IMG/VR virus record: IMGVR_UViG_3300027921_000004
Span: 1-24,756 of that record
Length of the DNA stretch: 24,756 nt
DNA from: a virus
Lineage: Duplodnaviria > Caudoviricetes
Strand: one strand, 5' to 3'
The notes beneath the pieces were generated by a model. It was not told the origin of the DNA, did no database searches, and saw only the letters and a program-made list of their open reading frames with translations. Positions 11,341-24,756 of this stretch are shown piece after piece. The number at the start of each line of letters is the position of its first letter. The stretch's first letter is position 1. Both the position numbers and the translations under genes were made by a program.

Positions 11341-11358
11341 GCATTGCTGACGCATCAA

Positions 11359-11643: not shown

Positions 11644-12846
11644 TTAAGTGTTGGCGTCGATGCCGACCATGCGCACGGCGTGGGTGTGCGGTCGATACGC
11701 GACGACGCCATACAGGATGTCGATACGGGTGAAGAATCGGTCGTTCGTGCCATCGTAATCGGTGATGATCCGAGCGCGGATACCCTTGTGCGTGCGACGG
11801 CTCGCACCATGCACACCCTGCGGAAGCACCAAATCGCCAGTCACCAGGCCGAACGCATCGCGGTGGAAGGCGATGGAGTTCACGCCGACTTCGGATGCGG
11901 TGCCGACAAAGGTGATGGCCGGGGTCCCGGTTGGCAGCGCGCTGACGTTCTTGTTCACGCCGCTGGCATACATCGCCGGGGCGAACGTCACCGTGGTTGA
12001 TGCACTGGATGCCGCCGTCACCACGAACTGCTTGAGGTTGCTCAAGGTTGCCTTGGTGATCGGGTTCACGTCGTACACCCCGGCAATATCGAACACGTCG
12101 CCAACAGCCAGCGTGCCAGTAGCAGACGCCACGATGGTCGTGCCGCCTTCGGTCGCGCCGCTGGCGTAGTTGCCAACGGAAATGTCTGCGCCGCAAGTGT
12201 GGGTGTACAGGTTCGGGCTTTGCAGCGTCTCAAAACCTGCGAGCATCCCGAGCTGCGCCTTCTTGTACATGTCGCTGACCGGCGCACCAGGATTGGCAAT
12301 GTGGATGAGGCCGCTGGTAGCGGTGCCCATCAACTTGGCCTTGTGGTACGGGGACAGCAGCATGAAGCGGTCGTTCATCGGCACGCCGTGTTCGGTCAGC
12401 TTCTGATCGGCGGCGAGCGGAGTGGCGATGCTGTTGATGTCCGTGCCCCATGTGCCGACGCTCATGCTCGCACTGGATGCCAGGGCCAGCAAGTCGATGT
12501 CAACTTGGTTGGCGAGGGCTTCCATGCGCGGCTTGATGGTGAACTCGCTGAATTCCTGGAATGCCGAATGGGTCATCTCGGCGCTGGTCATCGTGAAATC
12601 GCAGTGCTTTTGCTTGTCCAGGGCGACGAGCACCTTGGTCGAAGACGTGTCCTTCAGGTCCAGGGTAGGGCCATCGCTGACGGTCGGTGTCTCGGGAATG
12701 GGAACGTAGAAGCTATCGCCGCGTTTCGCGTTCTGGGCCTCTTTCTCGTAGCGGCGGTTGACGCACTTGGCGGCAACACAGGCATTGTCGAAATGGTCGA
12801 GCGCGTCTCGCAATATCGCGTCGTATGAAAGCAGTTCATTTGCCAT
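11644..12846 (-). CDS. Major capsid protein (P22 gp5 coat family)
   Basis: 400 aa; MANELL...AL..F.N, KRGDS..VP.P, LDKQKH, IKPRMEALANQVD.DL, IAFHRDAFGL and RIDILYGV motifs. Confidence 0.9.
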   Translation of the reverse strand: MANELLSYDAILRDALDHFDNACVAAKCVNRRYEKEAQNAKRGDSFYVPIPETPTVSDGPTLDLKDTSSTKVLVALDKQKHCDFTMTSAEMTHSAFQEFSEFTIKPRMEALANQVDIDLLALASSASMSVGTWGTDINSIATPLAADQKLTEHGVPMNDRFMLLSPYHKAKLMGTATSGLIHIANPGAPVSDMYKKAQLGMLAGFETLQSPNLYTHTCGADISVGNYASGATEGGTTIVASATGTLAVGDVFDIAGVYDVNPITKATLSNLKQFVVTAASSASTTVTFAPAMYASGVNKNVSALPTGTPAITFVGTASEVGVNSIAFHRDAFGLVTGDLVLPQGVHGASRRTHKGIRARIITDYDGTNDRFFTRIDILYGVVAYRPHTHAVRMVGIDANT

Positions 12847-12932
12847 GATAAATCTCCGGTTGTTGGGCCGGGTGCCGATTCCGATACGGCTGCGAGGTGA
12901 CGAGTCTCATGTAACGTCTAATGTTCGCTAGG

Positions 12933-12948: not shown

Positions 12949-12953
12949 GTGAA

Positions 12954-13073
12954 TCACAAATATTTTAATTGAAAGTGCATCCCATCTCGCTCGCCCCAGT
13001 CTCCACCCCAATCAAATCCGGCCTCCTTATCCGCCATTCCGTACTTCTGCGCGCAGTCTCCAGCGGTAATCAT
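12954..13073 (-). pseudogene. Internally deleted M15-family peptidase endolysin remnant (39 aa)
   Basis: MITAGDCAQKYGMADKEAGFDWGGDWGERDGMHFQLKYL. The C-terminal GF.WGG.W...DGMHFQL is the M15 peptidase signature, but the central zinc-binding region is absent. Located downstream of the holin-like gene. Confidence 0.7.
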
Positions 13074-13240
13074 CCCTCGTCATCCTCATGCTTGAATTGC
13101 AGGCACTTCACGGCGGCAGGGAACCTGCGCCCTCCGTGATCGCAACACACCATTCCTTTTTCCCGGCCGACCTTTGAGCATTCCGCGCACTGACCGTTCA
13201 GGTCGCAAGCGGGAAACCAGCCGAAGGTATCGGTTTTCAC
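13070..13240 (-). CDS. Small Cys-rich hypothetical protein (56 aa)
   Basis: GTG start overlaps the upstream stop (GTGA) and its stop overlaps the next ATG (ATGA). Sequence MKTDTFGWFPACDLNGQCAECSK...VCCDH...KCLQFK. Confidence 0.5.
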   Translation of the reverse strand: MKTDTFGWFPACDLNGQCAECSKVGREKGMVCCDHGGRRFPAAVKCLQFKHEDDEG

Positions 13241-13491
13241 TTGTCCACCTTCGTGTCAAGTTTCTGCTCGATCCTGTCCAGTTTCGTGAAGATAGCGACA
13301 ATATGTCGGTCCAAGTCATCCCTCTTCACATATTGCCCAGCCACCAGAACCTCGATTGATTGCACTTTCATTGCCAAGTGTTCATCGGATTCGTGCAGTG
13401 ATTTCACAGATTCCCGCAATGCGTTGATGAGCACACCTGCAAAAAAAGCCGACAAACCGATAGCGTAGTTAAAAGCTGTTTGATAATCCAT
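13237..13491 (-). CDS. Holin-like / single-TM lysis-module protein
   Basis: 84 aa; N-terminal hydrophobic helix, then coiled coil with YVKRDD...KLDRIEQKLD; upstream of the endolysin remnant. Confidence 0.5.
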   Translation of the reverse strand: MDYQTAFNYAIGLSAFFAGVLINALRESVKSLHESDEHLAMKVQSIEVLVAGQYVKRDDLDRHIVAIFTKLDRIEQKLDTKVDK

Positions 13492-13495
13492 ATAG

Positions 13496-13855
13496 TCATC
13501 CCCAATGATTGTGTTGTATTTCTTTTAGATTGCATTCTGCTAACGCAGCTTCAAGCGTTGTATTCACAAATAGCTTTGCAGTAGCACAGTAACTTTGTGC
13601 GACAGTTAATGGAATTTTTGCAGTTGCGGCAAGAGCTATTGGCGTTTCCATGAAGTATTGCACCTTGGTGAGAAACTCATCACTGCAAGGCGCTCCAGCT
13701 AGATAATGCGTAGCAGGTTCCTCACCTGTAGCAGATAGCGGAGTGCTGTAGATGTCAACATCGTATTGGTTGCCAGATAGGCCAGCCACGATCCCGCCTG
13801 CAAGAGGAACAAATGCAGCAGGGACAATAGAGTAGATGTAGTGGTCCGGATTCAT
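13496..13855 (-). CDS. Hypothetical protein
   Basis: 119 aa, coupled to the 613-aa gene by an ATGA overlap; PLSATGEEPATHY motif. Confidence 0.65.
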   Translation of the reverse strand: MNPDHYIYSIVPAAFVPLAGGIVAGLSGNQYDVDIYSTPLSATGEEPATHYLAGAPCSDEFLTKVQYFMETPIALAATAKIPLTVAQSYCATAKLFVNTTLEAALAECNLKEIQHNHWG

Positions 13856-15693
13856 ATTGTCACCCCATTCTTGCTACCGAAGTAGCGTTCTACTGTCTTG
13901 ACTTCCGCTTCTGTCATAAATGCAGGACAGATCATTGCGCCGGAGAATGGGCCGTTTGAAAAGCCTGTTCCTGCTGTAAGGCTGGTTTGAAGTGCACCAA
14001 TACTTACGGCGTATGAATCCGTGTCGCTTGTATTCCCGGCACTGGTTAGAGTAAGTGCAGAAGCGGCGACATTGTTTACGCGTAGATACGCAAGGCCGTT
14101 TGCGTAATCTGTGCGGCTGGAGGCCACCAAGCGAAGATTATTAGGTGCTACTGCGCTTGCTTGTGCCGCAATTGCTTCGGCGTCAAGGCGGCGGATAGCT
14201 TGCGTGTACTGGTTAGCGCCATTCTGCCGCAGCGCATTTCTTTCCGTACTAGCTGCGTTCGTGTTGACTTCCATATGGTATCGAGTCCCCGCCCCTAATT
14301 CCTGCTGTGCTACTACAAGGGTGGAACCTACCACATTTCTCAGAATGCCAAGCGCTGAAGGTACGCTGTAGAACGTGGCCGCGCCATCGCCATCCAGGTA
14401 GTACTCGGGGGGGCGATAGACATTTGCTGCGGCGGGGTTGAAATCTGCTACTGGCGTTCCACTTGCTGTGGCGTTATTCCAGATTTTGACGTAGTAGAGC
14501 TTACCGTTGAAAACATTGGCCGTGATATACTTTCCACCAACGATAACCACGCTACTTGTTTCATCCGGTGCGAGCAATAGCGTAGCGTCCACCGTTGTTC
14601 CAAGCTGCGTCCAGGTTACGCCATCTAGGGAAGTCTCGAATACTACCGATACGCCAATGGTGCGCTTTCCGCGCATGTAACCTTTCTGACCCGCTGAGAA
14701 TGGAACAGCAACCGTAGAAGTGGCCGTCTGCGCTACGGTTGCTTTGAACCACTGGAACAGCAATTTTCCGGTGGCATCTAGCGACAGGTAGAACTCGCCA
14801 ACGCTAGAACCAACGGATTTGGCGGTGAAGCCTTGAAGCACACCAGTATATGAAACCGGAGTTGCACAAACTTCAATCGAGCAATCTCCAACAATGCTGA
14901 GCGCTGCTGAATCTTGCGTGCTCGCGTAATTGCTCGCAGCCCCAGAACATTGCAAGTAAGGAACGCCATCAGCATCCCAAGCAATTCCGCTTCTATTCGC
15001 TATGTGCGTTCCTGCGAATGTCCAAGTTTCTCCGGTTGTGGGAGAAACCATCGGCTCGCGGTTCAGGTTCTTCCGCAAGATCATTGACGCAGCAGAAGTA
15101 TAGGCAATCGCGTTATGACCTAGCACTTCCTTGAAAGATATATTGTCAATGCTGCCGTCGAATGCCGTATTTGCAAATAACCCAATAGTCTGGTTAGTTG
15201 TTCCACATACAATGTATTCCGTGTATGTGCCTGATGCTGTTCTGTTGGTTCCGAAAGCCCCGCCTGCGCCTACGCGAACCGTCCCGCTATTCAGTACGAC
15301 CGTATAGGTAACTTTGTAAAGTCGTCCAGATACCCCCAGACTCGCTCGATACACACCAAGCGAAGTTGTTACCGCAGTGAATAAAGCTACCCCACCTGCA
15401 ATGATTACCCCGGTATCTTTAGTCCACCAAGTGTCAGACGCAAAGTCTCCATTGGTAGCAAGTTCACTACCAAGCGCGCCTCTATACCGCTCATCGAGAA
15501 TAATCTTGACCAGCGAACCTTCCACTGCTGGCGTACCTGCTGTATCGGCCCAGCAAGTCTCCTGGCGCGGTAGCCAGTAAGGCGCGTTGTACTTGGCGGC
15601 TATGGCCGCGACTTGCTGATTTTGGAAGCTTGCTGCACCAAACCCGGAGGAAGGCCATCCATCGGCGGGCCAAGATGGCGCTTGTGGGAACAT
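13852..15693 (-). CDS. Beta-rich virion-type protein with carbohydrate-binding and LamG/concanavalin-like segments
   Basis: 613 aa, Thr/Ala/Gly-rich; ELATNGDF...W...FDGSIDNISFKEV module, FNGKLYYVKIWN (LamG-like end) and C-terminal VERYFGSK. Visibly lower GC than the flanks. Confidence 0.55.
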   Translation of the reverse strand: MFPQAPSWPADGWPSSGFGAASFQNQQVAAIAAKYNAPYWLPRQETCWADTAGTPAVEGSLVKIILDERYRGALGSELATNGDFASDTWWTKDTGVIIAGGVALFTAVTTSLGVYRASLGVSGRLYKVTYTVVLNSGTVRVGAGGAFGTNRTASGTYTEYIVCGTTNQTIGLFANTAFDGSIDNISFKEVLGHNAIAYTSAASMILRKNLNREPMVSPTTGETWTFAGTHIANRSGIAWDADGVPYLQCSGAASNYASTQDSAALSIVGDCSIEVCATPVSYTGVLQGFTAKSVGSSVGEFYLSLDATGKLLFQWFKATVAQTATSTVAVPFSAGQKGYMRGKRTIGVSVVFETSLDGVTWTQLGTTVDATLLLAPDETSSVVIVGGKYITANVFNGKLYYVKIWNNATASGTPVADFNPAAANVYRPPEYYLDGDGAATFYSVPSALGILRNVVGSTLVVAQQELGAGTRYHMEVNTNAASTERNALRQNGANQYTQAIRRLDAEAIAAQASAVAPNNLRLVASSRTDYANGLAYLRVNNVAASALTLTSAGNTSDTDSYAVSIGALQTSLTAGTGFSNGPFSGAMICPAFMTEAEVKTVERYFGSKNGVTI

Positions 15694-15962
15694 TACCGAA
15701 TGCTCCAGGTATCTCCAGCTACACCAGTAAATCTCACGTTGCTTACTGGCGCACCGATAGTCAATACCTTTTGCGTCGCATCGTTGATTGCATAGGAAAC
15801 TTCCTTGAAGGAAGTCCCGCTGTCTGTGCTGATTTCGATTTTCTGCGTGGTGAGTGATGCAAATCCGAGCGTTATTGTTGCCGGAATGGATGCTGACTCC
15901 ATGTTCACCACTTCTGTTGTATCGGTGAGCGTGCCTTTGGACTTGGGGATATTAGTTTGCAT
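15693..15962 (-). CDS. Hypothetical protein
   Basis: 89 aa; overlaps the portal stop and the next start; GGAG RBS. Confidence 0.6.
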   Translation of the reverse strand: MQTNIPKSKGTLTDTTEVVNMESASIPATITLGFASLTTQKIEISTDSGTSFKEVSYAINDATQKVLTIGAPVSNVRFTGVAGDTWSIR

Positions 15963-17967
15963 TGCGATCTCCTTGATCTTTCAAAAAAGTGTTGCGCAAT
16001 ACATCCTGCGCTTCATCGAATTGCGCTTTCAGCACGTCCTCGGCCTTCATCGTCGCAATCTCCAGATCGTGCTGTTTCTTGACGATCCCTGCTTCCAGTT
16101 TCGCGGCTTCCAAACGCTGCGATAGCGACGTGATTTCGGCCTGCTGCTGCTCTGCCTCCTTGCCTGTCTGCTGGAGCGCCTGAGCGGCCTGCTCTGCCAT
16201 CTGCTGCGCCTGCTGTAGCTGCTGTTGCATCTGCTGGATAGCCGCCTGCATCTGCGCCATCTGCTGTTCCGGCTTCTGGCCTTTTCCTTCGGCCAATAAC
16301 TCTGGCGGGACCAACTTTTTCAGCCGTGCCGCGAGTTCGTCCGCGCCAGGCCAGTCCATATTCCCAACCCAGATGTCTGCCCCGACCTGGAGTAGCTGCG
16401 GTGCGGCCTGCGCCAACGAGGTAATCGCTGCCACGCTCTCTTGTCGCGCCGTGCCGAATGCCGGGCCGGCCGTGACTTCGGTGTCGTACTTTCCCGTCAG
16501 CCGGTTGCGCACGCCGCCAGGTTCCGGGCTGTTGAGGTGTACTGCGGTTGTCGTGCCATCGCGTGAGCGAGAGGTGACCACGCGCGTCGAGTCGTACACG
16601 CGAGGTATCGCATCCACGATGATGCGGCCAGTCTCCTCGACCGCGAGCAACAGGTTATCCGTAAAGATGTAGTTCCCTGTGTCGCCCTCGCGCTGCCGTG
16701 CCTGGATCGCCACGCCGCTGGTTTCGTTGCTTCGCTGGCCCAGACTGGCTTCATGGATTTTGGTGACCGCCATCACGTCGCCAGCCGCCACGATGGCCTC
16801 GCGCGCAAATCCTTCCGGGTAGGCGATTTGCTGCCGCTGCGGCCAGCCTGGGGCTTTGGGATCGGGATTGATGAGTAAGTATGGCTTGTTGCCAACATTC
16901 GCCCCGGCCCACATCTTTTCGTGCCCGCGCACCTGTTCTGCCGTCAGGATGTACGGCACTTTCGGCGCGCCGCCCATGATCTCGGCCACACTAGACCGGT
17001 TCAGGTTGTAGAGCATCTGCGGGTCTTTGGCCTTGCGCACCATACCAGACCAGTCCAGCCGGCCATCGAGCCAGGATTCATGCCCGACCACCAGCGAGAG
17101 AGGGACGTAGCGGCCAGGCCACTCGGTTTCCTCCAGCACCTCGTTGGCGGTAATCACTCGGCGCATGACCTTGGCCGTCCTGGTCTTGCGCTCGTTGAGT
17201 TGTTCGCTGCCCTCGGGTGGCGGCAGTATGTCCAGGTCGGTCTGTAGTGCGGTGATGATGTCGCCTGTCGGAAGGCGTAGCTGAATCAGCGTGTCGCTTG
17301 TGTACTCGCGCTTCCACCAGATCGCCGTGCGTACCTCGTCACATCCCCATTCGTCCGCCGCCTCAAATGAGCCGTTGGCCTTGGGATACGCCTTCTTGAA
17401 AGCCTCTTGCGTGAAATGGTCGATGACGAAACCGTATTCCATGCCGTCTGTCGTCGCCCAGTTGCGCGCGTCCGGGTAGATGGATAGCGGGTTGGGGATG
17501 CGGCGAATGGCAATGTGCTGGTCAAAACTGTCCGGCGCGCTGTACTCCGTATCGAGATACCAGCCGCCTAGCCCGCACTGCACGGCATGTTCAAACGAGA
17601 GCGCCTGTACCCACTCAAACCGGCTGCGGCGCTGGATGTCGCGCACCAGGCCGCTGATGAAATCGCCCTCGCTGATCGTGGATTTGTCGGCCGTCGTGAG
17701 GTCGTTTGCCTCCAGGCTCTTGGAGACGACCTTGACGGCCAGGTCGTTCTGCCGCTGATCGCCTACCAACTGGCTGATCGCGCCATCGAGTCTGTCAATC
17801 GTGAGGCAGGGGAGCCGCTGTGATTCTCGCCACGCCCTGAGTTCTTCCGGCCACTGGTCGCCATTGGCGAATCGCAGGTCTGTTTCTGCGACCTTGCGCC
17901 AGTCCCCGGTTAGCTCCTGTGCTTCGCTGAACTGTTCCAGCGCTTCCTTGATTATTGCGTCCGGCAC
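15952..17967 (-). CDS. Portal protein (P22 gp1-like)
   Basis: 671 aa; DLRFANGDQW, PCLTIDR, GMVRKAKDPQMLYN, SNETSGVAIQARQREGD, GKYDTEVTAGP and a Q-rich coiled-coil C-terminus. Confidence 0.92.
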   Translation of the reverse strand: MPDAIIKEALEQFSEAQELTGDWRKVAETDLRFANGDQWPEELRAWRESQRLPCLTIDRLDGAISQLVGDQRQNDLAVKVVSKSLEANDLTTADKSTISEGDFISGLVRDIQRRSRFEWVQALSFEHAVQCGLGGWYLDTEYSAPDSFDQHIAIRRIPNPLSIYPDARNWATTDGMEYGFVIDHFTQEAFKKAYPKANGSFEAADEWGCDEVRTAIWWKREYTSDTLIQLRLPTGDIITALQTDLDILPPPEGSEQLNERKTRTAKVMRRVITANEVLEETEWPGRYVPLSLVVGHESWLDGRLDWSGMVRKAKDPQMLYNLNRSSVAEIMGGAPKVPYILTAEQVRGHEKMWAGANVGNKPYLLINPDPKAPGWPQRQQIAYPEGFAREAIVAAGDVMAVTKIHEASLGQRSNETSGVAIQARQREGDTGNYIFTDNLLLAVEETGRIIVDAIPRVYDSTRVVTSRSRDGTTTAVHLNSPEPGGVRNRLTGKYDTEVTAGPAFGTARQESVAAITSLAQAAPQLLQVGADIWVGNMDWPGADELAARLKKLVPPELLAEGKGQKPEQQMAQMQAAIQQMQQQLQQAQQMAEQAAQALQQTGKEAEQQQAEITSLSQRLEAAKLEAGIVKKQHDLEIATMKAEDVLKAQFDEAQDVLRNTFLKDQGDRNAN

Positions 17968-17980
17968 GTTGACTGCTCCA

Positions 17981-17998
17981 ATAGTACAAATGGACTAT
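17981..17998 (-). promoter_or_regulatory. Putative late promoter/operator box upstream of the portal gene
   Basis: ATAGTACAAATGGACTAT matches the box at 12933-12948 at 15 of 16 positions; adjacent to the GGAG RBS. Confidence 0.55.
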
Positions 17999-18373
17999 CG
18001 GCAGTGTAGCACCGTGCTGGAATATGGAAATGCGCGTTATGCACAAACGAACATAACGGTACAGTCAAGGCAAGCCATGCTCTTTGATCCCCCCCATTGC
18101 TGGGGCAATCCTATTGGTAGAGGAGAGGGAATCGCACACTTTGCCGGGTGCCCGTATCGTGGGCTAGTCGCCACGCCTCTCGGCGCATCAGTTGAGCTTT
18201 ACCCGTATTGTGGCCTGTCGATTCCGTGCCGGCCTGGGGCGGCTTGCCAGTTACCCCATGCCCATAACCTGGGCGAGTCCGGCATGTGACGTGGCTGCCG
18301 GCAACGACCTGTACGCCGGTTTACGTTGCTGCTGTCCTATGGATTTTGATGATATTCATCTTGCGATGATAGC

Positions 18374-19606
18374 TCACGCCAGCCATCCGTGCCCGCCAAA
18401 CTGGGGGATGTCGTAGCCTGATTGCTCCTGGTGCGACGCCACGCCGCCAAGCAGTGGCTCCATCGCGTACCTGATCGCATCCCAGCAGTGGTCATTGCCC
18501 GGCTTGAGCTTGGGCAGGATGTCGCCGCTCAGTCTGTCCACCGCCCATTGCCATAGTCGAGACTCCTCCAGTGCGTGCGCACAGCGTGGGTGGATGACGA
18601 TCCCGTCGAACCCTCGCAGCAGCGCAATGCCATCCTCAATGCTGCCCGGCCCCTTTACGGCCGCATGGACGCGATACCCGCGCTTGACCATGTGCGCGAT
18701 TGTCTCGGGCCTGGCGCTGTCGGCCCGGATGACGTGCTGGCGAGAGCCTGGAACGAGATCGAACAGCCCTGGCAGCGCATCTAGATCGACCCTGTGTCCG
18801 TATGCCTCATGCTCGACATAGAGGTGGCGCGCGTGTACCCAGCATTTCACCAGCGTCGTCGGGTCCACGCTGTAGCCCCAGTCCGCGCCGTAGTACGGGC
18901 CATCCCAGTCAGAGCCTGGCGTGAAATCATCCACCACGCATTTACCAGCGAGAACCTGGGCCTCACTGTGCAGCACGCACGCGCCCTCCCAGATGTGCAG
19001 GTACGCATCCATATCGGTGCGGCGCATCTGCTCCATCTCGGCCCGCAGCACATCGGGAAACCACGGATTATCCTGCCAGTTCACGCGATGGACGATTGAG
19101 CCGGCCGGGGGATTGAGCACGAACCGCTGATAGGTGGAATCGCTCTCCATCGAAGGGTTGAACGAAATCCATATCTCAGAGTTTGGCGAGCGGATGGTGG
19201 GAATCAGAAACTTCCAGCTTTCCTCACTCACGCCCTGGGCTTCCTCCACCCAGCAGATGGATATGCCCTCAGTGGATTTGATTTCAGCGCTGTTGGCGCG
19301 CAGGCCGGCGAAAATGAACTCGCTCCCGTTGCGGCAGCGCAGGTAGTTCTGGCCCACGTCGTAATATGCCTGTAGGCCGCACATCTCGATCTGCTCTCGC
19401 AGCAATTGGAGCACGGATTGTTTGATCGAGTTTTGCAGCTCACGGCAACAGAGGATGCGGATTTTGCGCTGCATCGCCGCTATCAGGGCCAGGCGGGCGA
19501 ACACCCATGATTTGCTCGACCCGCGCCCGCCATAGGCGATTTTGTGCCGTGCTGGCGGGGAGAATTCAGCCGCCCACGGTGGTAGCTCGATGGTGCGCTC
19601 TGTCAC
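18374..19606 (-). CDS. terL: Terminase large subunit (PBSX family)
   Basis: Walker A YGGRGSSKS, Walker B CWVEEAQ, SFNP, nuclease YGADWGYSVDP, RADSARPETI and NDHCWDAIRYA. Confidence 0.95.
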   Translation of the reverse strand: MTERTIELPPWAAEFSPPARHKIAYGGRGSSKSWVFARLALIAAMQRKIRILCCRELQNSIKQSVLQLLREQIEMCGLQAYYDVGQNYLRCRNGSEFIFAGLRANSAEIKSTEGISICWVEEAQGVSEESWKFLIPTIRSPNSEIWISFNPSMESDSTYQRFVLNPPAGSIVHRVNWQDNPWFPDVLRAEMEQMRRTDMDAYLHIWEGACVLHSEAQVLAGKCVVDDFTPGSDWDGPYYGADWGYSVDPTTLVKCWVHARHLYVEHEAYGHRVDLDALPGLFDLVPGSRQHVIRADSARPETIAHMVKRGYRVHAAVKGPGSIEDGIALLRGFDGIVIHPRCAHALEESRLWQWAVDRLSGDILPKLKPGNDHCWDAIRYAMEPLLGGVASHQEQSGYDIPQFGGHGWLA

Positions 19607-19944
19607 TCCTCGATCCCGATGCTCAGGGCGTCGTGCTCGATCACCGTGCCCTGCTCCTCTGCTGCTATGTGGACAGCCCCGTAGACGATGCGCATGACAA
19701 TCTCGCCGCCGTCTGCCCCGCTCATCTCAACCTGCTGGCGAGGCTTGCCGTCGAGTACATCGCGCAGCATCTCGCAGGCCCAGCGCTCGCCGCCTGCCGC
19801 CAGGTCCATCACGGAGTTAACCGCCATTACGATCCGCTGCCGCTCGCTCGGTAGGGTCTTTGCCTCGCGCTCAATGAGTGCGCGGATGTGCGACTCCCAC
19901 AACTGAGATTTCCCACCTGCTCTATTGCCTAGTGCGAAGGCCAT
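19603..19944 (-). CDS. terS: Terminase small subunit (putative)
   Basis: 113 aa, GTGA overlap with terL; N-terminal F..GN..G and C-terminal LDGKPRQQVEMSGADGG motifs. Confidence 0.65.
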   Translation of the reverse strand: MAFALGNRAGGKSQLWESHIRALIEREAKTLPSERQRIVMAVNSVMDLAAGGERWACEMLRDVLDGKPRQQVEMSGADGGEIVMRIVYGAVHIAAEEQGTVIEHDALSIGIEE

Positions 19945-19959
19945 AATATGCGGTCATGT

Positions 19960-20008
19960 ATAAGCTTTTGGTTATGCAACCATAGCACAACCATAACCAA
20001 AAGCTTAT
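19960..20008. repeat. Perfect 17-bp inverted repeat upstream of terS
   Basis: ATAAGCTTTTGGTTATG (19960-19976) and CATAACCAAAAGCTTAT (19992-20008), with a 15-nt spacer. Confidence 0.9.
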
Positions 20009-20070
20009 GGTTTATGTCCAATATCCTGGCTACGGGTCAAGATTACACGTCAGATGGGGGCGATCATGCG

Positions 20071-20619
20071 TTATGCACCACGGTTCAATAACCTGTATTT
20101 GGTGTCAGTGTCGCCCTCAACCCAAACCGTCCAATGCACCTCCATTGTTGGCGCTCCGCCACGCTCTCCGCCCATGAAATCAGGCCGCCAAGTCAATGGC
20201 AGCACATAAGCGGGCGGAAACTCCTTGAACAGCAACGAGCGTTTTTTCGCGTGCCAGTATTGGGATTTTAAAACCATTGCCACCGTCCCAGCCTGAGTCA
20301 GCGCATGGCGTATGAATTCCTCGCTCACATTGAATGGGGGATTGGTAATAACTGCGTCATAGTCGGCACTCGTTTCGAGAAAATCAATTCCGCCATTCCC
20401 GTAACCAGTGTGGCGAATATCGCTTGATACAACGTCGTGTCCGTACTGTTTCAGAACTTCCGCCATCGCTCCATTACCGCAAGCTGGCTCCAAAATTAAG
20501 CAGGGTTTCAATTCCAGAAAACGCATGAGTGCGTGTGTTACATCTGGCGGCGTTGGGTAGAAATCCAAGTCGCGCCGTTTGTTGTCCGTACTGCTGTTTG
20601 CTAAATTAAGTGCTTTCAT
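20071..20619 (-). CDS. Cassette 1: DNA amino-methyltransferase (N6-A/N4-C type)
   Basis: DFYPTP, motif I ILEPACGNG, motif IV VITNPPF. The stop TAA lies within GTTATGC at 20070-20076. Confidence 0.85.
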   Translation of the reverse strand: MKALNLANSSTDNKRRDLDFYPTPPDVTHALMRFLELKPCLILEPACGNGAMAEVLKQYGHDVVSSDIRHTGYGNGGIDFLETSADYDAVITNPPFNVSEEFIRHALTQAGTVAMVLKSQYWHAKKRSLLFKEFPPAYVLPLTWRPDFMGGERGGAPTMEVHWTVWVEGDTDTKYRLLNRGA

Positions 20620-20641
20620 TCCACATCCTTAAAGTTGCCAC

Positions 20642-20705
20642 GCATAACACTGCGCTCAAAAAGGACAAGCCAAAACCCGGCTTGCCTTTTAGCTAGGCGT
20701 TAGGC
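20642..20705 (+). repeat. attC site 1 (64 bp)
   Basis: GCATAAC-ACTGC-GCTCAAAA...TTTTAGC-TAGGC-GTTAGGC. Confidence 0.9.
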
Positions 20706-21047
20706 ATCATGCAGCAGCACTGCACGCGCCATTTCAATATCCCGCGCCTTCGGCTTTATGCACCGGATCACGCGGGCCTTTTCACACTGCCACGAAAGCC
20801 CCGGCATAGAGCAATCCGGGTCTGGCTCAACCTCACCGAGCGGTTCGCACTCGTAAATTACGCCGTTCTTGACGCCTGCCGCGTACAGCAGCGCCGCCGC
20901 TTGGCTCGTGGTCACATAAACTCTATCGCGCCTATGCACATCAGCCGCCCCATATTCCGAGAGCGAGGGCGCTTTCGTTACTGTCGGCGGCAATATGTAC
21001 GCTCCACGCTGGATACCGCGCCGACCGCCGTGCCAGTAAGTCGTCAT
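20700..21047 (-). CDS. Cassette 2: Arr-like ADP-ribosyltransferase-fold protein
   Basis: YWHGG, RVYVTT, VIYECEPLGEVEPDPD and SW parallel the Arr motifs FYHGT / IYFT / IYIVEPTG..EDDP / SY. Confidence 0.6.
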   Translation of the reverse strand: MTTYWHGGRRGIQRGAYILPPTVTKAPSLSEYGAADVHRRDRVYVTTSQAAALLYAAGVKNGVIYECEPLGEVEPDPDCSMPGLSWQCEKARVIRCIKPKARDIEMARAVLLHDA

Positions 21048-21058
21048 CTCGTCTCCAT

Positions 21059-21124
21059 GCCTAACACGGCGCTCAAGCGGGACCGGGCAAACTGCCGCCC
21101 GGCCCCTTAGCTTCAGCGTTATGC
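21059..21124 (+). repeat. attC site 2 (66 bp)
   Basis: GCCTAAC-ACGGC-GCTCAAGC...CCTTAGC-TTCAGC-GTTATGC. Confidence 0.9.
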
Positions 21125-21316
21125 GTCTTCATAGCACGGCTCAGTCACGAAAGCCGGGACATCGACCGCACGAACTTCGTCAATCGAGTACAACGGCGAT
21201 GGCCCTGTCGCGTAGTGGCTTTTCGTCACTTCATACAACACGCCGTCGCAGCGAATAAACCGCGCCTTTTGTTTCTCGGCTTGGCGTTTCAGGTAGTACC
21301 ATTTTTCGTCTGTCAT
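21119..21316 (-). CDS. Cassette 3: hypothetical protein
   Basis: Likely start MTDEK at 21316 after AAAGGA; stop lies in the R' box. Confidence 0.65.
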   Translation of the reverse strand: MTDEKWYYLKRQAEKQKARFIRCDGVLYEVTKSHYATGPSPLYSIDEVRAVDVPAFVTEPCYEDA

Positions 21317-21338
21317 TTCGCGTCCTTTCATCAAATAC

Positions 21339-21402
21339 GCATAACCCGTCGTTCCAGCGGACTGGCGATAATGCCGCCAGCCGCTGAACTCAGGCGTTAT
21401 GC
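21339..21402 (+). repeat. attC site 3 (64 bp)
   Basis: GCATAAC-CCGTC-GTTCCAGC...GCTGAAC-TCAGGC-GTTATGC. Confidence 0.9.
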
Positions 21403-21693
21403 CGCTTCATACGTCGCCTCGAAAATGTCAGGCTTGCACGGGTACAGTTCGCCCTTCACGCCCTGGATGATCCAGTCGCCCCACGAAACGAGGTGCTGCC
21501 CTTCGAGCGTGCCAATCGAAAGCGTTCCGTCGCCCGTGCCTTCTTCGGTCGGGTACAGCGAGCCGGGCGCTTCGCGGTCAAGCTGCCAGGCGCGGTGCAT
21601 CCAGTTCGGCCAATCGGCATTGCTGGCGCGGCGCTCTTCGGTCATCTGGAACGCCTCGATCACTACGGGCTTCTTGCGAAATTTCAGGTTCAT
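21397..21693 (-). CDS. Cassette 4: conserved phage protein (PGDYG-like)
   Basis: Start MNLKF after GGAG. RKKPVVIEA...TLEG...GDWIIQGVKGELYPCKPDIFEATYE is a widespread phage accessory family. Confidence 0.8.
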   Translation of the reverse strand: MNLKFRKKPVVIEAFQMTEERRASNADWPNWMHRAWQLDREAPGSLYPTEEGTGDGTLSIGTLEGQHLVSWGDWIIQGVKGELYPCKPDIFEATYEAA

Positions 21694-21727
21694 TTTGTTC
21701 TCCAAAACCGCGCTTCGTGGGTAGGCG

Positions 21728-21803
21728 GCATAACCCGTCAATCAACACGGACGCCTGCCGGCGATAAAGCCGCCGTCAGTCGCCGATTATTTCTGCGTTG
21801 GGC
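21728..21803 (+). repeat. attC site 4 (76 bp)
   Basis: GCATAAC-CCGTC-AATCAACA...GATTATT-TCTGC-GTTGGGC. Confidence 0.85.
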
Positions 21804-22021
21804 GCATCAATTGCAGCATCAATCAGAGCGAGAGTTTCGTCATCCCATGAACGCAAAACTAGAGATTTCCTCGCCTCTATCATGGCCACCTGTAGCGCCT
21901 CGCGTTTCCGCCGTTCATCGTGCCAGCGATCGTAGAATTCAGCGTGTTCCCGCTCCAGAACTTTCATCCGGTCTTCCATTTCTATTAACCGGCAAGCATC
22001 AGTACATGGGTGCAATGGCAT
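21776..22021 (-). CDS. Cassette 5: hypothetical coiled-coil protein
   Basis: 81 aa after GGAAGGA; the C-terminus PNAEIIGD is encoded inside attC4. Confidence 0.6.
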   Translation of the reverse strand: MPLHPCTDACRLIEMEDRMKVLEREHAEFYDRWHDERRKREALQVAMIEARKSLVLRSWDDETLALIDAAIDAPNAEIIGD

Positions 22022-22043
22022 TTCATTTTCCTTCCGTTATATC

Positions 22044-22110
22044 GCCCAACAGGCGCTTCAACGCGGACGGGCGAAAATGCCCGCCCGCCGGTTAAGCTTT
22101 GGCGTTGGGC
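22044..22110 (+). repeat. attC site 5 (67 bp)
   Basis: GCCCAAC-AGGCG-CTTCAACG...GGTTAAG-CTTTGGC-GTTGGGC. Confidence 0.88.
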
Positions 22111-22114
22111 GTCA

Positions 22115-22342
22115 TCATTCATGCGCCTTTCGTTCGATTCCGACCTTCTTGACAATCAGAGACAGCATTTCCAATGTCGCCGCCGCGTCTTCCTGGTTCA
22201 CCGGCATTGTCACCTGCATTCGGCCTTTCATTGTCGCTGCGCTCTCCTTTCTGATCTGGCGTTCCGCCCACAACTGACCCCACCCGAAACCAGCAAACAA
22301 GAGCACTCCGATAGTAATTACTGCCGTGAAAATTTCTTCCAT
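22115..22342 (-). CDS. Cassette 6: small membrane-anchored hypothetical protein
   Basis: 75 aa; N-terminal hydrophobic helix; AAAGGA RBS. Confidence 0.65.
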   Translation of the reverse strand: MEEIFTAVITIGVLLFAGFGWGQLWAERQIRKESAATMKGRMQVTMPVNQEDAAATLEMLSLIVKKVGIERKAHE

Positions 22343-22366
22343 TTCAGTATCCTTTCAAGTTGTCAT

Positions 22367-22455
22367 CGCTAACAAGCGCTTCGAGCGGACCGGCGAACAT
22401 GCCGCCTCACTCCGATCCACCGCCGCGCGCCGGCCGCTCATGGCTGGCGTTAGAA
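22367..22455 (+). repeat. attC site 6 (89 bp)
   Basis: CGCTAAC-AAGCG-CTTCGAGC-GGACCGGCG...CGCCGGCC-GCTCATG-GCTGGC-GTTAGAA. Confidence 0.8.
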
Positions 22456-22512
22456 CCCAAGCCGTGGAGTCCCGTTACCGGGGCTCCAGAGTTTGGCTTC
22501 TTGGCGGGGGCG

Positions 22513-22668
22513 TCAGTATCCAGAAACACCAACGTCCCCGGTGCATATCAGCGGCCCGATAGGGCGCGGCATACGCGGCTCAGTATCGGCGTCGGCACGC
22601 TCTTGATCCACCATAGGTTCTGGCCAGTGGTAGCTGAGGGCCAAGCCGATCAACAAAACAATCAGCAT
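22513..22668 (-). CDS. Cassette 7: small protein (51 aa) with hydrophobic N-terminus
   Basis: Below the ORF-track cutoff. AGGAG RBS, then MLIVLLIGLALSYHWPEPMVDQERADADTEPRMPRPIGPLICTGDVGVSGY. Confidence 0.5.
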   Translation of the reverse strand: MLIVLLIGLALSYHWPEPMVDQERADADTEPRMPRPIGPLICTGDVGVSGY

Positions 22669-22683
22669 CTTCTGTGTCTCCTG

Positions 22684-22753
22684 TTCTAACTAACGCTTCA
22701 ACCCGGACGCTGCGCATAAAGGCCGCGCCGCGCCGGTTAAGCTGGCGTTATGC
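22684..22753 (+). repeat. attC site 7 (70 bp)
   Basis: TTCTAAC-TAACG-CTTCAACC...GGTTAAG-CTGGC-GTTATGC. Confidence 0.88.
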
Positions 22754-22932
22754 CGCGTGCAATTATCCACATCATGAATAACAACGGTCATTCCAAATGG
22801 GTCAAAAACCTGACATCCGCACACTGGGCACGTTTTTGGCTGCCTGGCGACGAACTTAGTAATCTGCTCGTCATCGTCGGGAATGCCACATTTTTTGCTG
22901 CACCTGGCTTTCGTGTACTCAACAAAATCCAT
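22690..22932 (-). CDS. Cassette 8: Cys-rich (CPVCG zinc-ribbon-like) hypothetical protein
   Basis: Likely start MDFVE after AAAGGA; reads through almost all of attC7 before stopping. Confidence 0.6.
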   Translation of the reverse strand: MDFVEYTKARCSKKCGIPDDDEQITKFVARQPKTCPVCGCQVFDPFGMTVVIHDVDNCTRHNASLTGAARPLCAASGLKR

Positions 22933-22952
22933 TTCATTTCCTTTGTTGTCAC

Positions 22953-23043
22953 GCATAACTGGCGGGTCAAGCGGGACGCCCGGCCGGCGTGGTTTGGTCT
23001 TTGCCGGCGTGGTGCCGGGCGCCCCTTACCCTAAACGTTATGC
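22953..23043 (+). repeat. attC site 8 (91 bp)
   Basis: GCATAAC-TGGCG-GGTCAAGC...CCTTACC-CTAAAC-GTTATGC. Confidence 0.88.
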
Positions 23044-23286
23044 GTCGTCTTCATTGCATATGTCGGTTTTTGGTCTTGATGTCATCCAGGCAATTATCTC
23101 ATCTTGCCGCCACATCACGCTTTTAGCTCCCCATCGCATTGGTTTCGGGAACTCTGGATCATAACGAGAATGTTCAGGGTTAATCATTTCGTAAATCTTG
23201 CTCCTGCTTATTCTTAATGCACCTTCAACCTCTACGCGCGTCATGATTAAGAATGGCGGATCGAATACAATTTTCACAGGTTTCAC
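23038..23286 (-). CDS. alpA: Cassette 9: AlpA-family phage regulator / recombination-directionality-factor-like HTH protein
   Basis: EVE..L.ISRSKIYEMINP....YDPEFPKPMRWGAKSVMWRQDEIIAWM is the AlpA pattern. Confidence 0.85.
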   Translation of the reverse strand: MKPVKIVFDPPFLIMTRVEVEGALRISRSKIYEMINPEHSRYDPEFPKPMRWGAKSVMWRQDEIIAWMTSRPKTDICNEDDA

Positions 23287-23308
23287 GTCTATATCCTTAT
23301 GTTGTCAT

Positions 23309-23400
23309 GCATAACGGGCGGTTCAAGCGGAGCGCGCGAAATGCCGGTTCACTTCGTGGTTAGCGCCTCGCGCGCGCCCGTTTAACCCAAGACGTTAGGG
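23309..23400 (+). repeat. attC site 9 (92 bp)
   Basis: GCATAAC-GGGCG-GTTCAAGC...GTTTAAC-CCAAGAC-GTTAGGG. Confidence 0.88.
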
Positions 23401-23651
23401 GCTTCCGGAAGCGGCATCCAAAACACAAAATAGTGCAATTCTTGACCCGAGACAGCATCACAAAACCCGCCTATAAAATCTCTCCAGTAAACCACCGCCA
23501 TCCCGGTTTCGTCTCCATTATCGGCATACCCGAGAAATACTTTCCCATCTTTCGGCGCGGTTTCAATTGGAAGCCATGCCCCTAACCCGGCGCTCAACGC
23601 GGACGCTGCGCCGTCAAGCTCTTCAACCTTCATCACTTCTTCCACGTTCAT
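23382..23651 (-). CDS. Cassette 10: DUF551-like phage protein
   Basis: WLPIETAPKDG...WMPLPEAP. Starts inside attC10 and ends inside attC9. Confidence 0.8.
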   Translation of the reverse strand: MNVEEVMKVEELDGAASALSAGLGAWLPIETAPKDGKVFLGYADNGDETGMAVVYWRDFIGGFCDAVSGQELHYFVFWMPLPEAPNVLG

Positions 23652-23701
23652 CTCTCCTTCAATCGTCGGCGCGCGCAGCGCCTGTTAGCTGGGCGTTAGC
23701 C
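23580..23701 (+). repeat. attC site 10 (122 bp; long loop carries an RBS and ATG on the minus strand)
   Basis: CCCTAAC-CCGGC-GCTCAACG-CGGACGCTGCGC...GCGCAGCGCC-TGTTAGC-TGGGC-GTTAGCC. Confidence 0.85.
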
Positions 23702-23874
23702 GCCACCTTCGCGGCCTTCTCGCGGCGTTTCAGCAACTTTGCCGCCAGCGCCTTGATAGCCACCCAGTCTTCCGGGTGGGCGTAGATTTCCAGGCGTTTC
23801 AGGCCAAGAGCGGCGGCCCGCTCTCGCAGGGCCGCTACCCGAGCACTGACGGATTTCGGATCATTCCGGGTCAA
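23659..23874 (-). CDS. Cassette 11 ORF c: small basic putative DNA-binding (ribbon-helix-helix/antitoxin-like) protein
   Basis: Likely TTG start after GGAG. RVAALRERAAALGLKRLEIYAHPEDW..IK; the tail is encoded in attC10. Confidence 0.55.
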   Translation of the reverse strand: MTRNDPKSVSARVAALRERAAALGLKRLEIYAHPEDWVAIKALAAKLLKRREKAAKVAANAQLTGAARADD

Positions 23875-24046
23875 TCCAGTCTCCAGGAACGTGCTCGATG
23901 AAGAAATTCTCATCCACCTGCACACCCATGTGGCGCGCAGTATTGATACGCTGGTGCATCTCTGTTTCGCAGTCCGTACTGTTGTCAGACACGAACACGC
24001 AAACTCCATCCTGAGAAATTAATTTGTAATTCGATGGTGAGTACAT
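23861..24046 (-). CDS. Cassette 11 ORF b: hypothetical protein
   Basis: 61 aa; TAATG overlap with the upstream ORF. Confidence 0.55.
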   Translation of the reverse strand: MYSPSNYKLISQDGVCVFVSDNSTDCETEMHQRINTARHMGVQVDENFFIEHVPGDWIDPE

Positions 24047-24321
24047 TATGTGAACTCCCGGATAATGAAATGTTTTGCATCACTTTCGATGCGTTCGATA
24101 TCCTCAAACAACTCACTATCCGCAGTCAGTGTGACCATTCCATCCTCTGTTGCAGTTGCCTCGACATACCGAGAGCGTGTGTCAGCAACCGCACTGCGCG
24201 CCAGGTCGATGAAAACCTGAAAATACCCGTGCGCGCCTTTACTCAGCGGCCCCTCACAAGCTGCGACAGCGAATTCCATCTCTTTTCTTAGGTCGATGGT
24301 GACGGTGCGTTTTTCTGTCAT
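24046..24321 (-). CDS. Cassette 11 ORF a: acidic hypothetical protein
   Basis: 91 aa; AGGAG RBS; directly downstream of the predicted promoter. Confidence 0.7.
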   Translation of the reverse strand: MTEKRTVTIDLRKEMEFAVAACEGPLSKGAHGYFQVFIDLARSAVADTRSRYVEATATEDGMVTLTADSELFEDIERIESDAKHFIIREFT

Positions 24322-24353
24322 TTCGTGCTCCTGGTTGGTTGCGGTACGGTTCT

Positions 24354-24382
24354 AATATAGCAAACCGTTTCCGGTAACGCAA
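24354..24382 (-). promoter_or_regulatory. Sigma70-type promoter inside cassette 11 with an overlapping near-palindromic operator
   Basis: Minus strand TTGCGT-17 nt-TATATT with TG extension and an A/T-rich upstream tract; GTTACCGGAAAC overlaps the -35 and spacer. Confidence 0.6.
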
Positions 24383-24419
24383 GGGCTTGAGAAGATATAT
24401 TTTTTGTCACGGCTGTCAC

Positions 24420-24488
24420 GGCTAACTCGTCGTTCCAGGCGACCGGGCGGATAAAGCCCCGCCCGCCGCCTGAACTGTTGCGTTAGGC
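24420..24488 (+). repeat. attC site 11 (69 bp)
   Basis: GGCTAAC-TCGTC-GTTCCAGG...CCTGAAC-TGTTGC-GTTAGGC. Confidence 0.9.
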
Positions 24489-24755
24489 ACCAAGTGCCGC
24501 CAGTTCTTCGCACAGTTTTGCTTTCCGCTGCTCTATCCACTCTTGGTCAATCTCGACGGCCATTCCTGCCGAGGCTTCGGCTACGTTGCAGGCGTCAATC
24601 CAGCCTTGCGCCTCTCTGCAATTTATGGAGCCTCCAGCATTCATAGAAACATGATCTCCAATCTCGAAAGTCCCGTCTACGCTGGCCTTGGTGACGATGT
24701 ACCGCTTACCCACCGCCATGCCTAACACGTCGCTCAACCCGGACGCTGCGCCGGC
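24483..24755 (-). CDS. Cassette 12: hypothetical protein (start uncertain; frame open to the window edge)
   Basis: ...AGAASGLSDVLGMAVGKRYIVTK...; stop lies in the R' box of attC11. Confidence 0.65.
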   Translation of the reverse strand, partial: AGAASGLSDVLGMAVGKRYIVTKASVDGTFEIGDHVSMNAGGSINCREAQGWIDACNVAEASAGMAVEIDQEWIEQRKAKLCEELAALGA

Positions 24756-24756
24756 A
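24720..24756 (+). repeat. attC site 12 (left half only, truncated by the window)
   Basis: GCCTAAC-ACGTC-GCTCAACC-CGGACGCTGCGCCG, closely similar to the left arm of attC10. Confidence 0.8.

Follow-up and report, generated by a model that had tools for sequence, protein, structure and literature searches.

Reversed attC cassettes and a likely attI-like site beside the presumed terS gene of a P22-like phage

The phage contig and its attC array

The window analysed here is a stretch of viral DNA of 24,756 nucleotides (IMG/VR record IMGVR_UViG_3300027921_000004, positions 1 to 24,756). It belongs to a P22-like phage, with a P22-like portal, a P22-like coat protein and a terminase large subunit (terL) among its profile matches. 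The record is about 65% complete, with about 35% of the genome absent, and the contig stops inside an attC site, attC12. The following features lie up to the start of the array:

11644..12846, minus strand, P22-like coat protein (PF11651, E 2.5e-40)
15952..17967, minus strand, P22-like portal (PF16510, E 5.8e-142)
18374..19606, minus strand, terL (PF04466, E 1.2e-42)
19603..19944, minus strand, presumed terS, named from its position; overlaps the terL start, diverges from the attI top strand and lies in the place of intI
19960..20008, no strand, perfect 17-bp inverted repeat in the terS-attI interval, considered as a possible Xer/dif site
20015..20076, plus strand, degenerate attI-like site with a predicted G|TT crossover at 20070, by likeness to the attI of bacterial integron G116

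The terS label draws on position and on Atlas neighbours, which are viral hypothetical proteins; no protein family was matched. Searches with terL, terS and coat retrieved no phage closely related to this one as a whole, so that cassette gain or loss within its own lineage is a proposal; the terS and coat searches of viral contigs gave nothing useful. The array was absent at 80 terL loci (42-59% identity), with at most three scattered box-scanner matches per locus and 0 covariance-model matches in 18 of them. In an annotated phage collection, the PGDYG-like gene was the sole match among the listed 30 of 176. Within 121 relatives of G116, no prophage close to the window phage was found, the best portal match being 37%. 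Runs X3 and X4 placed no unitigs on the window, which is not proof of absence.

From the terminal motif GTTATGC at 20070 onwards, the window contains 11 complete attC-type sites of 64-122 bp and a 12th truncated by the contig end (24720-24756). Measured from G to G, the units span 629, 419, 278, 401, 307, 345, 298, 290, 357, 301 and 787 bp, reproducing the 11 complete units of 278-787 bp given in a preliminary description of this DNA. The complete sites, with their covariance-model scores, are:

20642..20705, plus (top strand), attC1, 48.5 bits
21059..21124, plus, attC2, 59.3 bits
21339..21402, plus, attC3, 60.8 bits
21728..21803, plus, attC4, 36.9 bits
22044..22110, plus, attC5, 40.5 bits; 98% over 55 nt to a site of G440
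22367..22455, plus, attC6, 35.7 bits
22684..22753, plus, attC7, 45.9 bits
22953..23043, plus, attC8, near copy of an attC repeated in bacteria, 45.2 bits; 89% to G116 sites
23309..23400, plus, attC9, likewise a near copy of an attC repeated in bacteria, 31.7 bits; 93-94% to G442 and G459 sites
23580..23701, plus, attC10, 122 bp, 44.4 bits
24420..24488, plus, attC11, 43.8 bits

A self-built covariance model, trained on 69 bacterial attC bottom strands, recovered 11 of 11 complete sites on the minus strand at 31.7-60.8 bits and nothing else in the window. Its best plus-strand match reached 11.9 bits, and nothing was found left of 20642. With the same model, the three sites of phage TJE1, two of which were shown to be active (Qi 2023, PMC9892861), scored 31.1-38.8 bits, and Shewanella phage 3/49 gave no match above 14.1 bits. 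Rfam returned 0 matches within the window. A box-pairing scan yielded 11 matches in 20000-24756, comprising 10 real sites and one nested duplicate, with site 4 one match lower; 1000 dinucleotide shuffles averaged 0.167 matches and never exceeded 3, and positions 1-19900 gave none. All 11 complete sites carry R''-L''-L'-R' boxes and an extrahelical base opposite the R' crossover within a length of 55-150 bp. Of the 11 sites, 9 had a lower folding energy as bottom strand than as top strand, several of them by less than 1 kcal/mol. The sites share one strand, lie less than 4 kb apart and have no neighbouring intI, the arrangement termed CALIN in the available text of PMC4889954.

Cassette cargo and gene polarity

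The cassettes, all with minus-strand genes, carry the following cargo:

20070..20698, minus, cassette 1: DNA methyltransferase (MTase; 20071-20619; phrog_799, E 6.7e-56), stop codon within the core site
20699..21117, minus, cassette 2: Arr-like ADP-ribosyltransferase-family protein (20700-21047; phrog_17296, E 2.2e-28)
21118..21395, minus, cassette 3: 65-aa ORF (21119-21316; weak phrog_4007 match)
21396..21796, minus, cassette 4: PGDYG-like protein (21397-21693; phrog_419, E 3.9e-30)
21797..22103, minus, cassette 5: 81-aa ORF (21776-22021), reading across the crossover into attC4
22104..22448, minus, cassette 6: 75-aa ORF with a hydrophobic N-terminus (22115-22342)
22449..22746, minus, cassette 7: 51-aa ORF with a hydrophobic N-terminus (22513-22668)
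22747..23036, minus, cassette 8: 80-aa ORF with Cys pairs (22690-22932), reading through attC7
23037..23393, minus, cassette 9: AlpA-family regulator (23038-23286; PF05930, E 7.2e-10)
23394..23694, minus, cassette 10: 89-aa ORF (23382-23651), with ribosome-binding site and start within the attC10 loop
23695..24481, minus, cassette 11: three ORFs (24046-24321, 23861-24046, 23659-23874) downstream of a promoter-like stretch
24482..24756, minus, cassette 12 (ORF 24483-24719), closed by the left arm of attC12, where the contig end cuts it

The phage accessory cargo proposed in the preliminary description is borne out for the MTase, AlpA and PGDYG-like genes by phrog_799, PF05930 and phrog_419. Its "DUF551-like" label is tentative, drawing on a weak phrog_924 match (E 0.004) and on a motif. 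The PGDYG-like gene matches, at 75.6% on the DNA level, a gene annotated as "pgdyg protein", and attC flanks were absent beside its closest relatives (8 of 80 inspected by eye). The cassette 2 product matches Pfam Arr-ms below the cut-off (E 1e-4), and its identification as a rifampin ADP-ribosyltransferase (Arr) was rejected at 14.7 and 15.5 bits against NCBIfam ARR cut-offs of 130 and 250. The Atlas neighbours of the last ORF of cassette 11 include clusters with 11% MazE-like members. A promoter and terminator scan of the window stayed at chance level.

All 14 cassette ORFs lie on the strand opposite the attC top strand, unlike the genes of canonical cassettes; the preliminary description had overlooked this reversal. 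At 126 other viral loci, picked out by an attC pattern that ignores orientation, 118 cassettes were reversed, 3 sense and 31 ambiguous (118 of 121 scorable), compared with 29 sense, 5 reversed and 44 ambiguous at 20 bacterial integron loci (5 of 34 scorable reversed). The controls TJE1 and Vibrio phage p16 were canonical, with 7 sense, 0 reversed and 8 ambiguous cassettes. These counts replace an earlier test by longest ORF without ribosome-binding sites, which was too noisy for short cassettes. By covariance model, reversed polarity also characterizes MW202573, a Qi 2023 phage with P22-like portal and coat. In the complete bacterial integrons L598 and L398, reversed cassettes are present as a minority; Abi_alpha, AbiU2 and PDC-S29 are among the sense cassettes. 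Of 10 reversed bacterial ORFs, one had a weak PHROG match and none a clear one, and six of them, searched against the fetched loci and the window, had no relative in a viral locus.

The terS end, the integrase and cassette exchange

The terS end of the array is likely a degenerate attI, with terS where intI would sit; this end, too, had gone unremarked. Compared with the attI of G116, which was picked after its attC match, the 20070 site ranks first of 688 GTT sites in the window (14 of 19 nt). With a general attI matrix it ranks fifth of 688, below the leave-one-out bacterial range of 4.9-34. Across 41 arrays, an attI-like site was top-ranked in its own locus in 19, and 7 arrays reached the bacterial score range. 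A single copy of the motif TGTCCRRTA lies in the window, at 20015; the motif is also present in the intI-attI spacer of G116, G437 and G287 and in phage locus L179, but in 1 of 19 other integrons. The DNA identity shared by the window and L179 continues for 15 nt beyond the crossover, and the end of L179 falls inside the bacterial range of attI scores. From the presumed start of terS (19944) to the terminal G, the distance is 126 bp, in agreement with the approximately 125 bp first described, versus 114 bp for intI in G116.

Window sites 8 and 9 are 83-89% identical to the attC sites of G116. Run X1 contains a 60-nt unitig, at depth 1641.7, that is one letter off attC8. One rival reading is a host chromosomal integron joined to the phage contig, whether at the edge of a prophage or through misassembly of repeated attC sites. 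In its favour, the sequences covering attC8 and attC9 have hundreds of times the depth of the phage, and misjoins are possible there; the contig ends before the far side of the array; and only attC2-4 are bridged by one listed unitig. Such a fusion is very improbable, given that a single unitig (17814-20509, zero differences) covers terL, terS, attI and most of the MTase, joining the array to phage DNA on the terS side, and that cargo depth (5-9) resembles that of the structural genes (6.4-6.7). Further arguments against it are an attI without intI, a polarity opposite to bacterial arrays, cargo unmatched in any of 121 genomes sharing the attC type, and the same layout in the complete phage genomes G001 and G005.

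A complete integron has intI beside attI; in the window, terS is there instead. No IntI was found in the window, which covers about 65% of the genome, nor in 22 virus records with such attC sites (0 matches to TIGR02249 at E 1e-10). Five of these 22 encode a tyrosine recombinase; of the nine that are at least 90% complete, eight have none and one has a non-IntI enzyme. In Burkholderiales-order bacteria, the order with matching integrons, IntI was found in 126 of 301 genomes. Genomes G302, G034 and G213 were left out of all conclusions. A self-contained phage integron, with its own IntI or Xer-like recombinase in the missing third, is the reading implied by the preliminary description and would fit an incomplete record that breaks inside attC12; we consider it unlikely, as attI adjoins terS rather than a recombinase, the virus records argue against it, and both attC and attI match host-type sites. 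The likeness of these sites to those of a single bacterial lineage points to the host as the likely source of the enzyme, and because the recovered DNA contains no integrase gene, the phage likely borrows it. The "dedicated phage gene-shuffling system" initially proposed is thus not upheld.

At G|TT, relatives of two of the cassettes are joined to other neighbours. MTase relatives of cassette 1 switch neighbours at the core site: all 15 at 74% identity or above end in TAAC, whereas 1 of the 25 less similar ones does; the 30 nt inside the crossover have an identity of 0.69, compared with 0.30 outside, where all 16 12-mers are distinct. Relatives of the Arr-like gene at 90-95% identity occur in three phages with different neighbours, the match spanning 20696-20699 to 21064-21066; one Arr relative, L416, still matches for about 20 nt beyond the crossover into attC1. 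In an independent run, X2, unitigs start at 20069, at 21395-21396 (three unitigs, at the cassette 4 edge) and at 23695. Cassettes 1, 2, 4 and 11 appear as units with changed neighbours, bounded by G|TT. The MTase tree gives no support for a single origin of the cassette form: it has 4 changes, and 0% of bootstrap trees have one, although the form clusters on the tree, none of 500 shuffles reaching so low a count. The X1 joints 22394 to 22060 and 23040 to 23306 were rejected as circles or deletions; their intervening letters are unknown and their arms are shared with deep repeats.

The attC body behaves differently from the gene. Identity of a gene's own attC falls from 1.0 at 95% gene identity to 0.72 at 92-94% and 0.50 at 85%, in a comparison that leaves out the L082 and L183 rows, where the own attC was wrongly picked automatically. 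Between the window and L179, genes are 0.85 identical and the cassette's own attC body 0.50, the random level; in L081/L185, the own attC differs at 92% gene identity. Crossovers inside attC arms could yield the L179 value, as would be expected of a relic, built by IntI in the past with attI since decayed, whose genes would now be exchanged chiefly through homologous or illegitimate recombination of similar attC arms in co-infection, comparable to lambdoid junction sequences. The low general-matrix attI score and the four ORFs that read across a crossover also fit, as does the lack of excised-circle junctions in X1 contigs, which drop rare variants. We nevertheless regard a relic as unlikely, since all 11 sites have full attC scores, sites 8 and 9 closely copy repeats present in bacteria today, breakpoints fall at AAC instead of being scattered through the arms, and L188 and L189 carry near-identical MTases with the same attC and new neighbours.

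Proposed mechanism and relation to known systems

Judged from the sequence, the locus probably combines a likely attI with at least 12 reversed attC cassettes and no recovered integrase gene, and host IntI likely inserts, excises and exchanges cassettes at G|TT. A phage ancestor may have acquired the spacer between intI and attI from a host integron, with terS taking the place of intI. During infection, host IntI would recombine the folded bottom strand, here the coding strand; extrahelical bases determine the recombined strand and the insertion orientation (PMC5027507). Cassettes would excise by attC x attC recombination and insert at the terS-side attI. Phage transcription, its direction read from the ORFs only, would run towards attI and terS and would therefore express reversed cassettes, leaving canonical host cassettes antisense. 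In a host array, reversed and canonical cassettes would meet the opposite outcome, and polarity would therefore sort a shared cassette pool into phage-expressed and host-expressed sets. The conserved unit in relatives would be the gene from G|TT to the AAC of R'', with attC bodies turning over and likely taken from the host's repeated attC sites.

More tentatively, and with somewhat less than even confidence, we suggest a widespread phage mirror image of the integron, in which attI is captured without intI, the host integrase is used, and phage accessory or counter-defence cassettes are expressed while host anti-phage ones stay silent. Phage genes may become cassettes with host attC sites and flow to host integrons, making such arrays a cassette birthplace. 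Integrons have been regarded as devices of bacteria and, more recently, as reservoirs of anti-phage genes. If the proposal is true, phages possess a platform with the same integrase and opposite polarity for programmed change of methyltransferases and small accessory genes, and polarity offers a simple rule for who expresses what from a shared pool. One gene family occurs with and without core sites, and phage genes carry attC bodies near-identical to bacterial repeats, which makes the conversion of genes into cassettes testable here. Anti-phage defence is often encoded by chromosomal integron cassettes, according to the available text of 10.1101/2024.07.02.601686.

Phage attC clusters have already been published; in the literature searched, we found no account of reversed polarity together with attI. 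Phage-borne CALINs are attC clusters in phages without intI, often with MTase cargo, and IntI1 recombines their attC sites (Qi, Rajabal, Ghaly, Tetu and Gillings 2023, PMC9892861). The window resembles them in both features, and MW202573 shares the reversal. However, the published clusters have 2-4 sites (Table S1; TJE1 3) versus at least 12 here, TJE1 is canonical, and the main text describes no gene-versus-attC reversal, no attI in a virulent-phage CALIN and no inter-phage cassette exchange. Top-strand R'' recombination of attC (Nivina et al. 2016, PMC5027507) is a known low-frequency route to R'' crossovers, which could exchange attC bodies or flip a GTT...AAC gene module; it inverts the whole cassette relative to the array and alone gives no uniformly reversed gene-attC polarity. 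The attG sites and SALINs (Loot et al., 10.1101/2022.09.11.507474) likewise involve IntI acting outside its own integron, and a stop codon plus C reads GTTA on the opposite strand, consistent with the GWT consensus. SALINs are isolated insertions, whereas the window pairs a long, ordered array with an attI-like end of lineage-specific type. Other close counterparts are the sedentary chromosomal integrons of Burkholderiales-order bacteria (G116, G437), with 83-94% attC identity, likeness in the attI core and spacer motif, a predicted G|TT crossover and an opposite-strand gene 114-126 bp from attI; the window differs from them in having terS in place of intI, all cassettes antisense, a minority state in bacteria, and phage accessory cargo.

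The attC array and its phage setting

The region at 20070–24756 is a real, large phage attC array. The array of 278–787-bp units proposed in the preliminary description was borne out, since the region contains 11 complete attC-type sites of 64–122 bp, a twelfth truncated at the contig end and units spanning exactly those lengths, and an attC covariance model recovered all 11 complete sites on the − strand (31.7–60.8 bits), with no match left of 20642 in the window. This model was derived from 20 regions adjoining IntI genes in genomes from the order of the bacterial genome G006 and built from an alignment of 69 of 113 candidate sites, which were chosen by our own scanner, so that the model inherits the scanner's assumptions. 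With the same model, the attC sites of phage TJE1, two of which are reported to recombine (Qi et al. 2023, PMC9892861), scored 31.1–38.8 bits. A box-pairing scan returned 11 matches in the array region, made up of 10 real sites plus a single nested duplicate (shuffle control: mean 0.167, maximum 3 in 1000 shuffles), with site 4 one match lower, and zero matches at positions 1–19900. The array fits the definition of a CALIN, an attC cluster without intI; tests for a complete integron and for canonical cassettes were negative.

The left 20 kb codes for terL, a P22-like portal, coat, scaffold, head closure, tail fibre and ejection proteins, and the virus record is linear and 65% complete. The viral join at the array start, for which the preliminary description had sought reads across 19.9–20.1 kb, is bridged in sequencing run X1 by a single unitig spanning 17814–20509 with zero differences, a stretch that takes in terL and terS as well as the terminal site and the greater part of the cassette 1 MTase gene. 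X1 is probably the source sample and therefore not independent of the window. A second X1 unitig spans attC2–4, and cargo depth (5–9) is similar to that of the structural genes (6.4–6.7). The remaining joins are not bridged by the listed X1 pieces, making cassette order less sure at sites common to deep repeats.

Features in and beside the array

10607–11344: 245-aa ORF between the coat and scaffold genes (phrog_1574, function unassigned); our impression is of a glycosyltransferase-type protein.
19960–20008: perfect inverted repeat, with 17-bp arms 15 nt apart, in the interval from terS to the attI-like site; it could be an operator or packaging signal.
23695–24481: cassette 11, whose three ORFs are accompanied by a stretch resembling a promoter and, near 24368–24380, by a palindrome of the GTTACCGG type. 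A contig from run X2 links 23835 to 24321, skipping 485 nt, which suggests that a shorter version of this cassette exists.

Reversed gene polarity

The extra base sits in L'' on the + strand in all sites, identifying + as the top strand, and all 14 array ORFs lie on the − strand, opposite the attC top strand. By our reading, a ribosome-binding motif precedes 13 of these ORFs; the core-site TAA serves as the stop codon for six, four extend across the crossover into the neighbouring attC, and cassette 10 starts within the attC10 loop. Across 126 viral loci, which were picked by an attC pattern that ignores gene direction and is biased to this attC lineage, and of which a few share a contig, polarity was reversed in 118 cases, sense in 3 and ambiguous in 31; 28 of 29 scorable viral arrays were reversed. 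The controls gave 7 sense, 0 reversed and 8 ambiguous calls for TJE1 and Vibrio phage p16, which carry canonical attC cassettes, and 29 sense, 5 reversed and 44 ambiguous calls for 20 bacterial loci.

Three candidate reasons for this polarity in nearly all of the phages may be considered: protection against host defence cassettes; an arrangement in which the bottom strands serve as lagging-strand template (PMC5371416, PMC8946536), as the lagging-strand model predicts (PMC5371416); and creation of an attG-like entry point by a stop codon followed by C, in the sense described in bioRxiv 10.1101/2022.09.11.507474.

In five of the ten scanned window sites (attC1, 5, 6, 8 and 9), a GTT precedes R'' by exactly 8 nt, a spacing otherwise seen at one of 292 viral sites and one of 108 bacterial ones. 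On the gene strand of these five, a start codon directly follows R'', yielding a tiny leader ORF ahead of the real ribosome-binding site. Cassettes of the type found in the bacterial genome G116 have related GYYGYCAY ends. The GTT is possibly a trace of attC joining to phage genes.

Changes of cassette neighbours and the terS-proximal end

Among the best 40 of 177 MTase loci, with duplicates removed, a TAAC end was present in 15 of 15 at no less than 74% identity versus 1 of 25 below 74%. Pairwise identity was 0.69 across the 30 nt inside the crossover versus 0.30 outside, where 16 of 16 12-mers were distinct, and the one cassette shared by loci L083, L188 and L189 has, on either side, a different neighbour in each of the three. 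The Arr-like cassette 2 matches three phages between 20696–20699 and 21064–21066, limits that correspond to G|TT and to the AAC of R''; for a fourth, partial relative the match extends into attC1 by roughly another 20 nt. Run X2, which is independent, has unitigs, or matching portions of unitigs, that start at 20069, 21395–21396 and 23695. The expectation of breakpoints at G|TT thus held in that cassette relatives switch neighbours there; as for gain or loss within a lineage, searches turned up no relative of the phage as a whole, and the breakpoint evidence comes from relatives of single cassettes.

Where the genes are 95% identical, the attC body belonging to the cassette is retained; at 92–94% it is retained in part, and at 85% its identity is at random level. 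The attC bodies of loci L081 and L185 differ at 92%. This loss with falling gene identity suggests that the stable unit is the GTT...AAC gene module, while attC bodies would turn over. The Arr-like protein (window 20700–21047) has a 95% relative, P0001, whose C-terminal extension resembles an attC arm in translation; shuffling can therefore alter protein ends.

The terS end appears attI-like. Scored with a general matrix derived from 23 attI sites of bacteria, the predicted crossover at 20070 ranks fifth of 688 window GTT sites, under the leave-one-out range; the terminal site of L179/L180, the closest MTase relative, whose DNA match to the window continues 15 nt beyond the crossover, falls inside that range. 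A query with attC8–9 matched 4 of 401 genomes, the best being G116, whose integron has five sites of this type adjoining intI. Over the 19 nt preceding the G, the G116 attI, a comparison picked after the attC match, agrees with the window at 14, which places 20070 first among the 688 GTT sites, ahead of a runner-up with 11. The motif TGTCCRRTA, found once in the window at a distance of 55 nt upstream of the G, recurs in L179 and in the intI–attI spacers of G116 and two further bacterial genomes (G437 and G287), against 1 of 19 other integrons. On the opposite strand, terS has its start 126 nt away from the G, and G116 intI has its own at 114 nt. Across 41 arrays, the best upstream attI candidate was first in its own locus in 19 and within the bacterial score range in 7, a ranking somewhat inflated by taking the best among several candidates.

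Six viral or metagenome arrays (L428, L458, L416, L183, L470 and L438) terminate in clear bacterial-type attI sites. At L179/L180:690–900, the same MTase cassette ends at attI, followed by a small ORF in the intI position, presumably excisionase-like.

Source of the integrase and relation to known integrons

The window has no match to TIGR02249, the IntI profile. Tyrosine recombinases occur in 5 of 22 virus records bearing such sites, none matching TIGR02249 at E 1e-10 (bacterial control, 473 bits); of the 9 records with a completeness of 90% or more, 8 lack any tyrosine recombinase. Of 301 genomes from the G006 order, 126 have an IntI match above its cut-off. Matches to the array occur in 24 of 121 G116 relatives; they fall on attC sites and their immediate flanks, with cargo unmatched (best, 94% over attC9), and no close prophage was detected in these relatives. 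An abundant attC8-type repeat is present in the X1 sample: a 60-nt unitig one letter off attC8 has a depth of 1641.7, against a phage depth of 5–9, although summed unitig depth is not a copy number. The recombining enzyme is probably the host's.

In bacterial arrays, 10 of 42 scorable cassettes are reversed, some surely false ORFs; two lie in integrons with IntI (L598 and L398), several have leaders resembling those of window cassettes 2, 5 and 8, and none has a clear PHROG match. The short contigs of bacterial genome G442 could be mis-binned phage DNA. Sense bacterial cassettes include Abi_alpha, AbiU2 and PDC-S29. In L553 (G116:C11:1–2700), the first two cassettes are short, mutually related and apparently non-coding.

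The sites, the gene polarity, the breakpoints seen in relatives, the resemblance to attI and the lack of IntI in the recovered DNA are observed; the reading placed on them is that the array is, in function, most likely an integrase-less integron of reversed polarity. A phage ancestor may have captured an intI–attI spacer, and host IntI would act on the folded coding strand of the array. New cassettes would enter at the terS end, which would make the MTase the newest; it is also terminal in L179/180, L184, L188, L189, L084 and L192. Cassettes would be expressed through read-through towards terS, and canonical cassettes landing in the array would stay silent.

Phage CALINs have precedent: Qi et al. 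2023 (PMC9892861) describe 17, with IntI1 active on five of six phage attC sites. Our literature search, which mostly covered sources other than subscription papers, found no account of reversed phage arrays with attI. The main text of Qi et al. 2023 (PMC9892861) is silent on reversed polarity in MW202573, whose CALIN, carried by a P22-like phage (L604:2069–3738), is of reversed polarity by the covariance model, with five matches.
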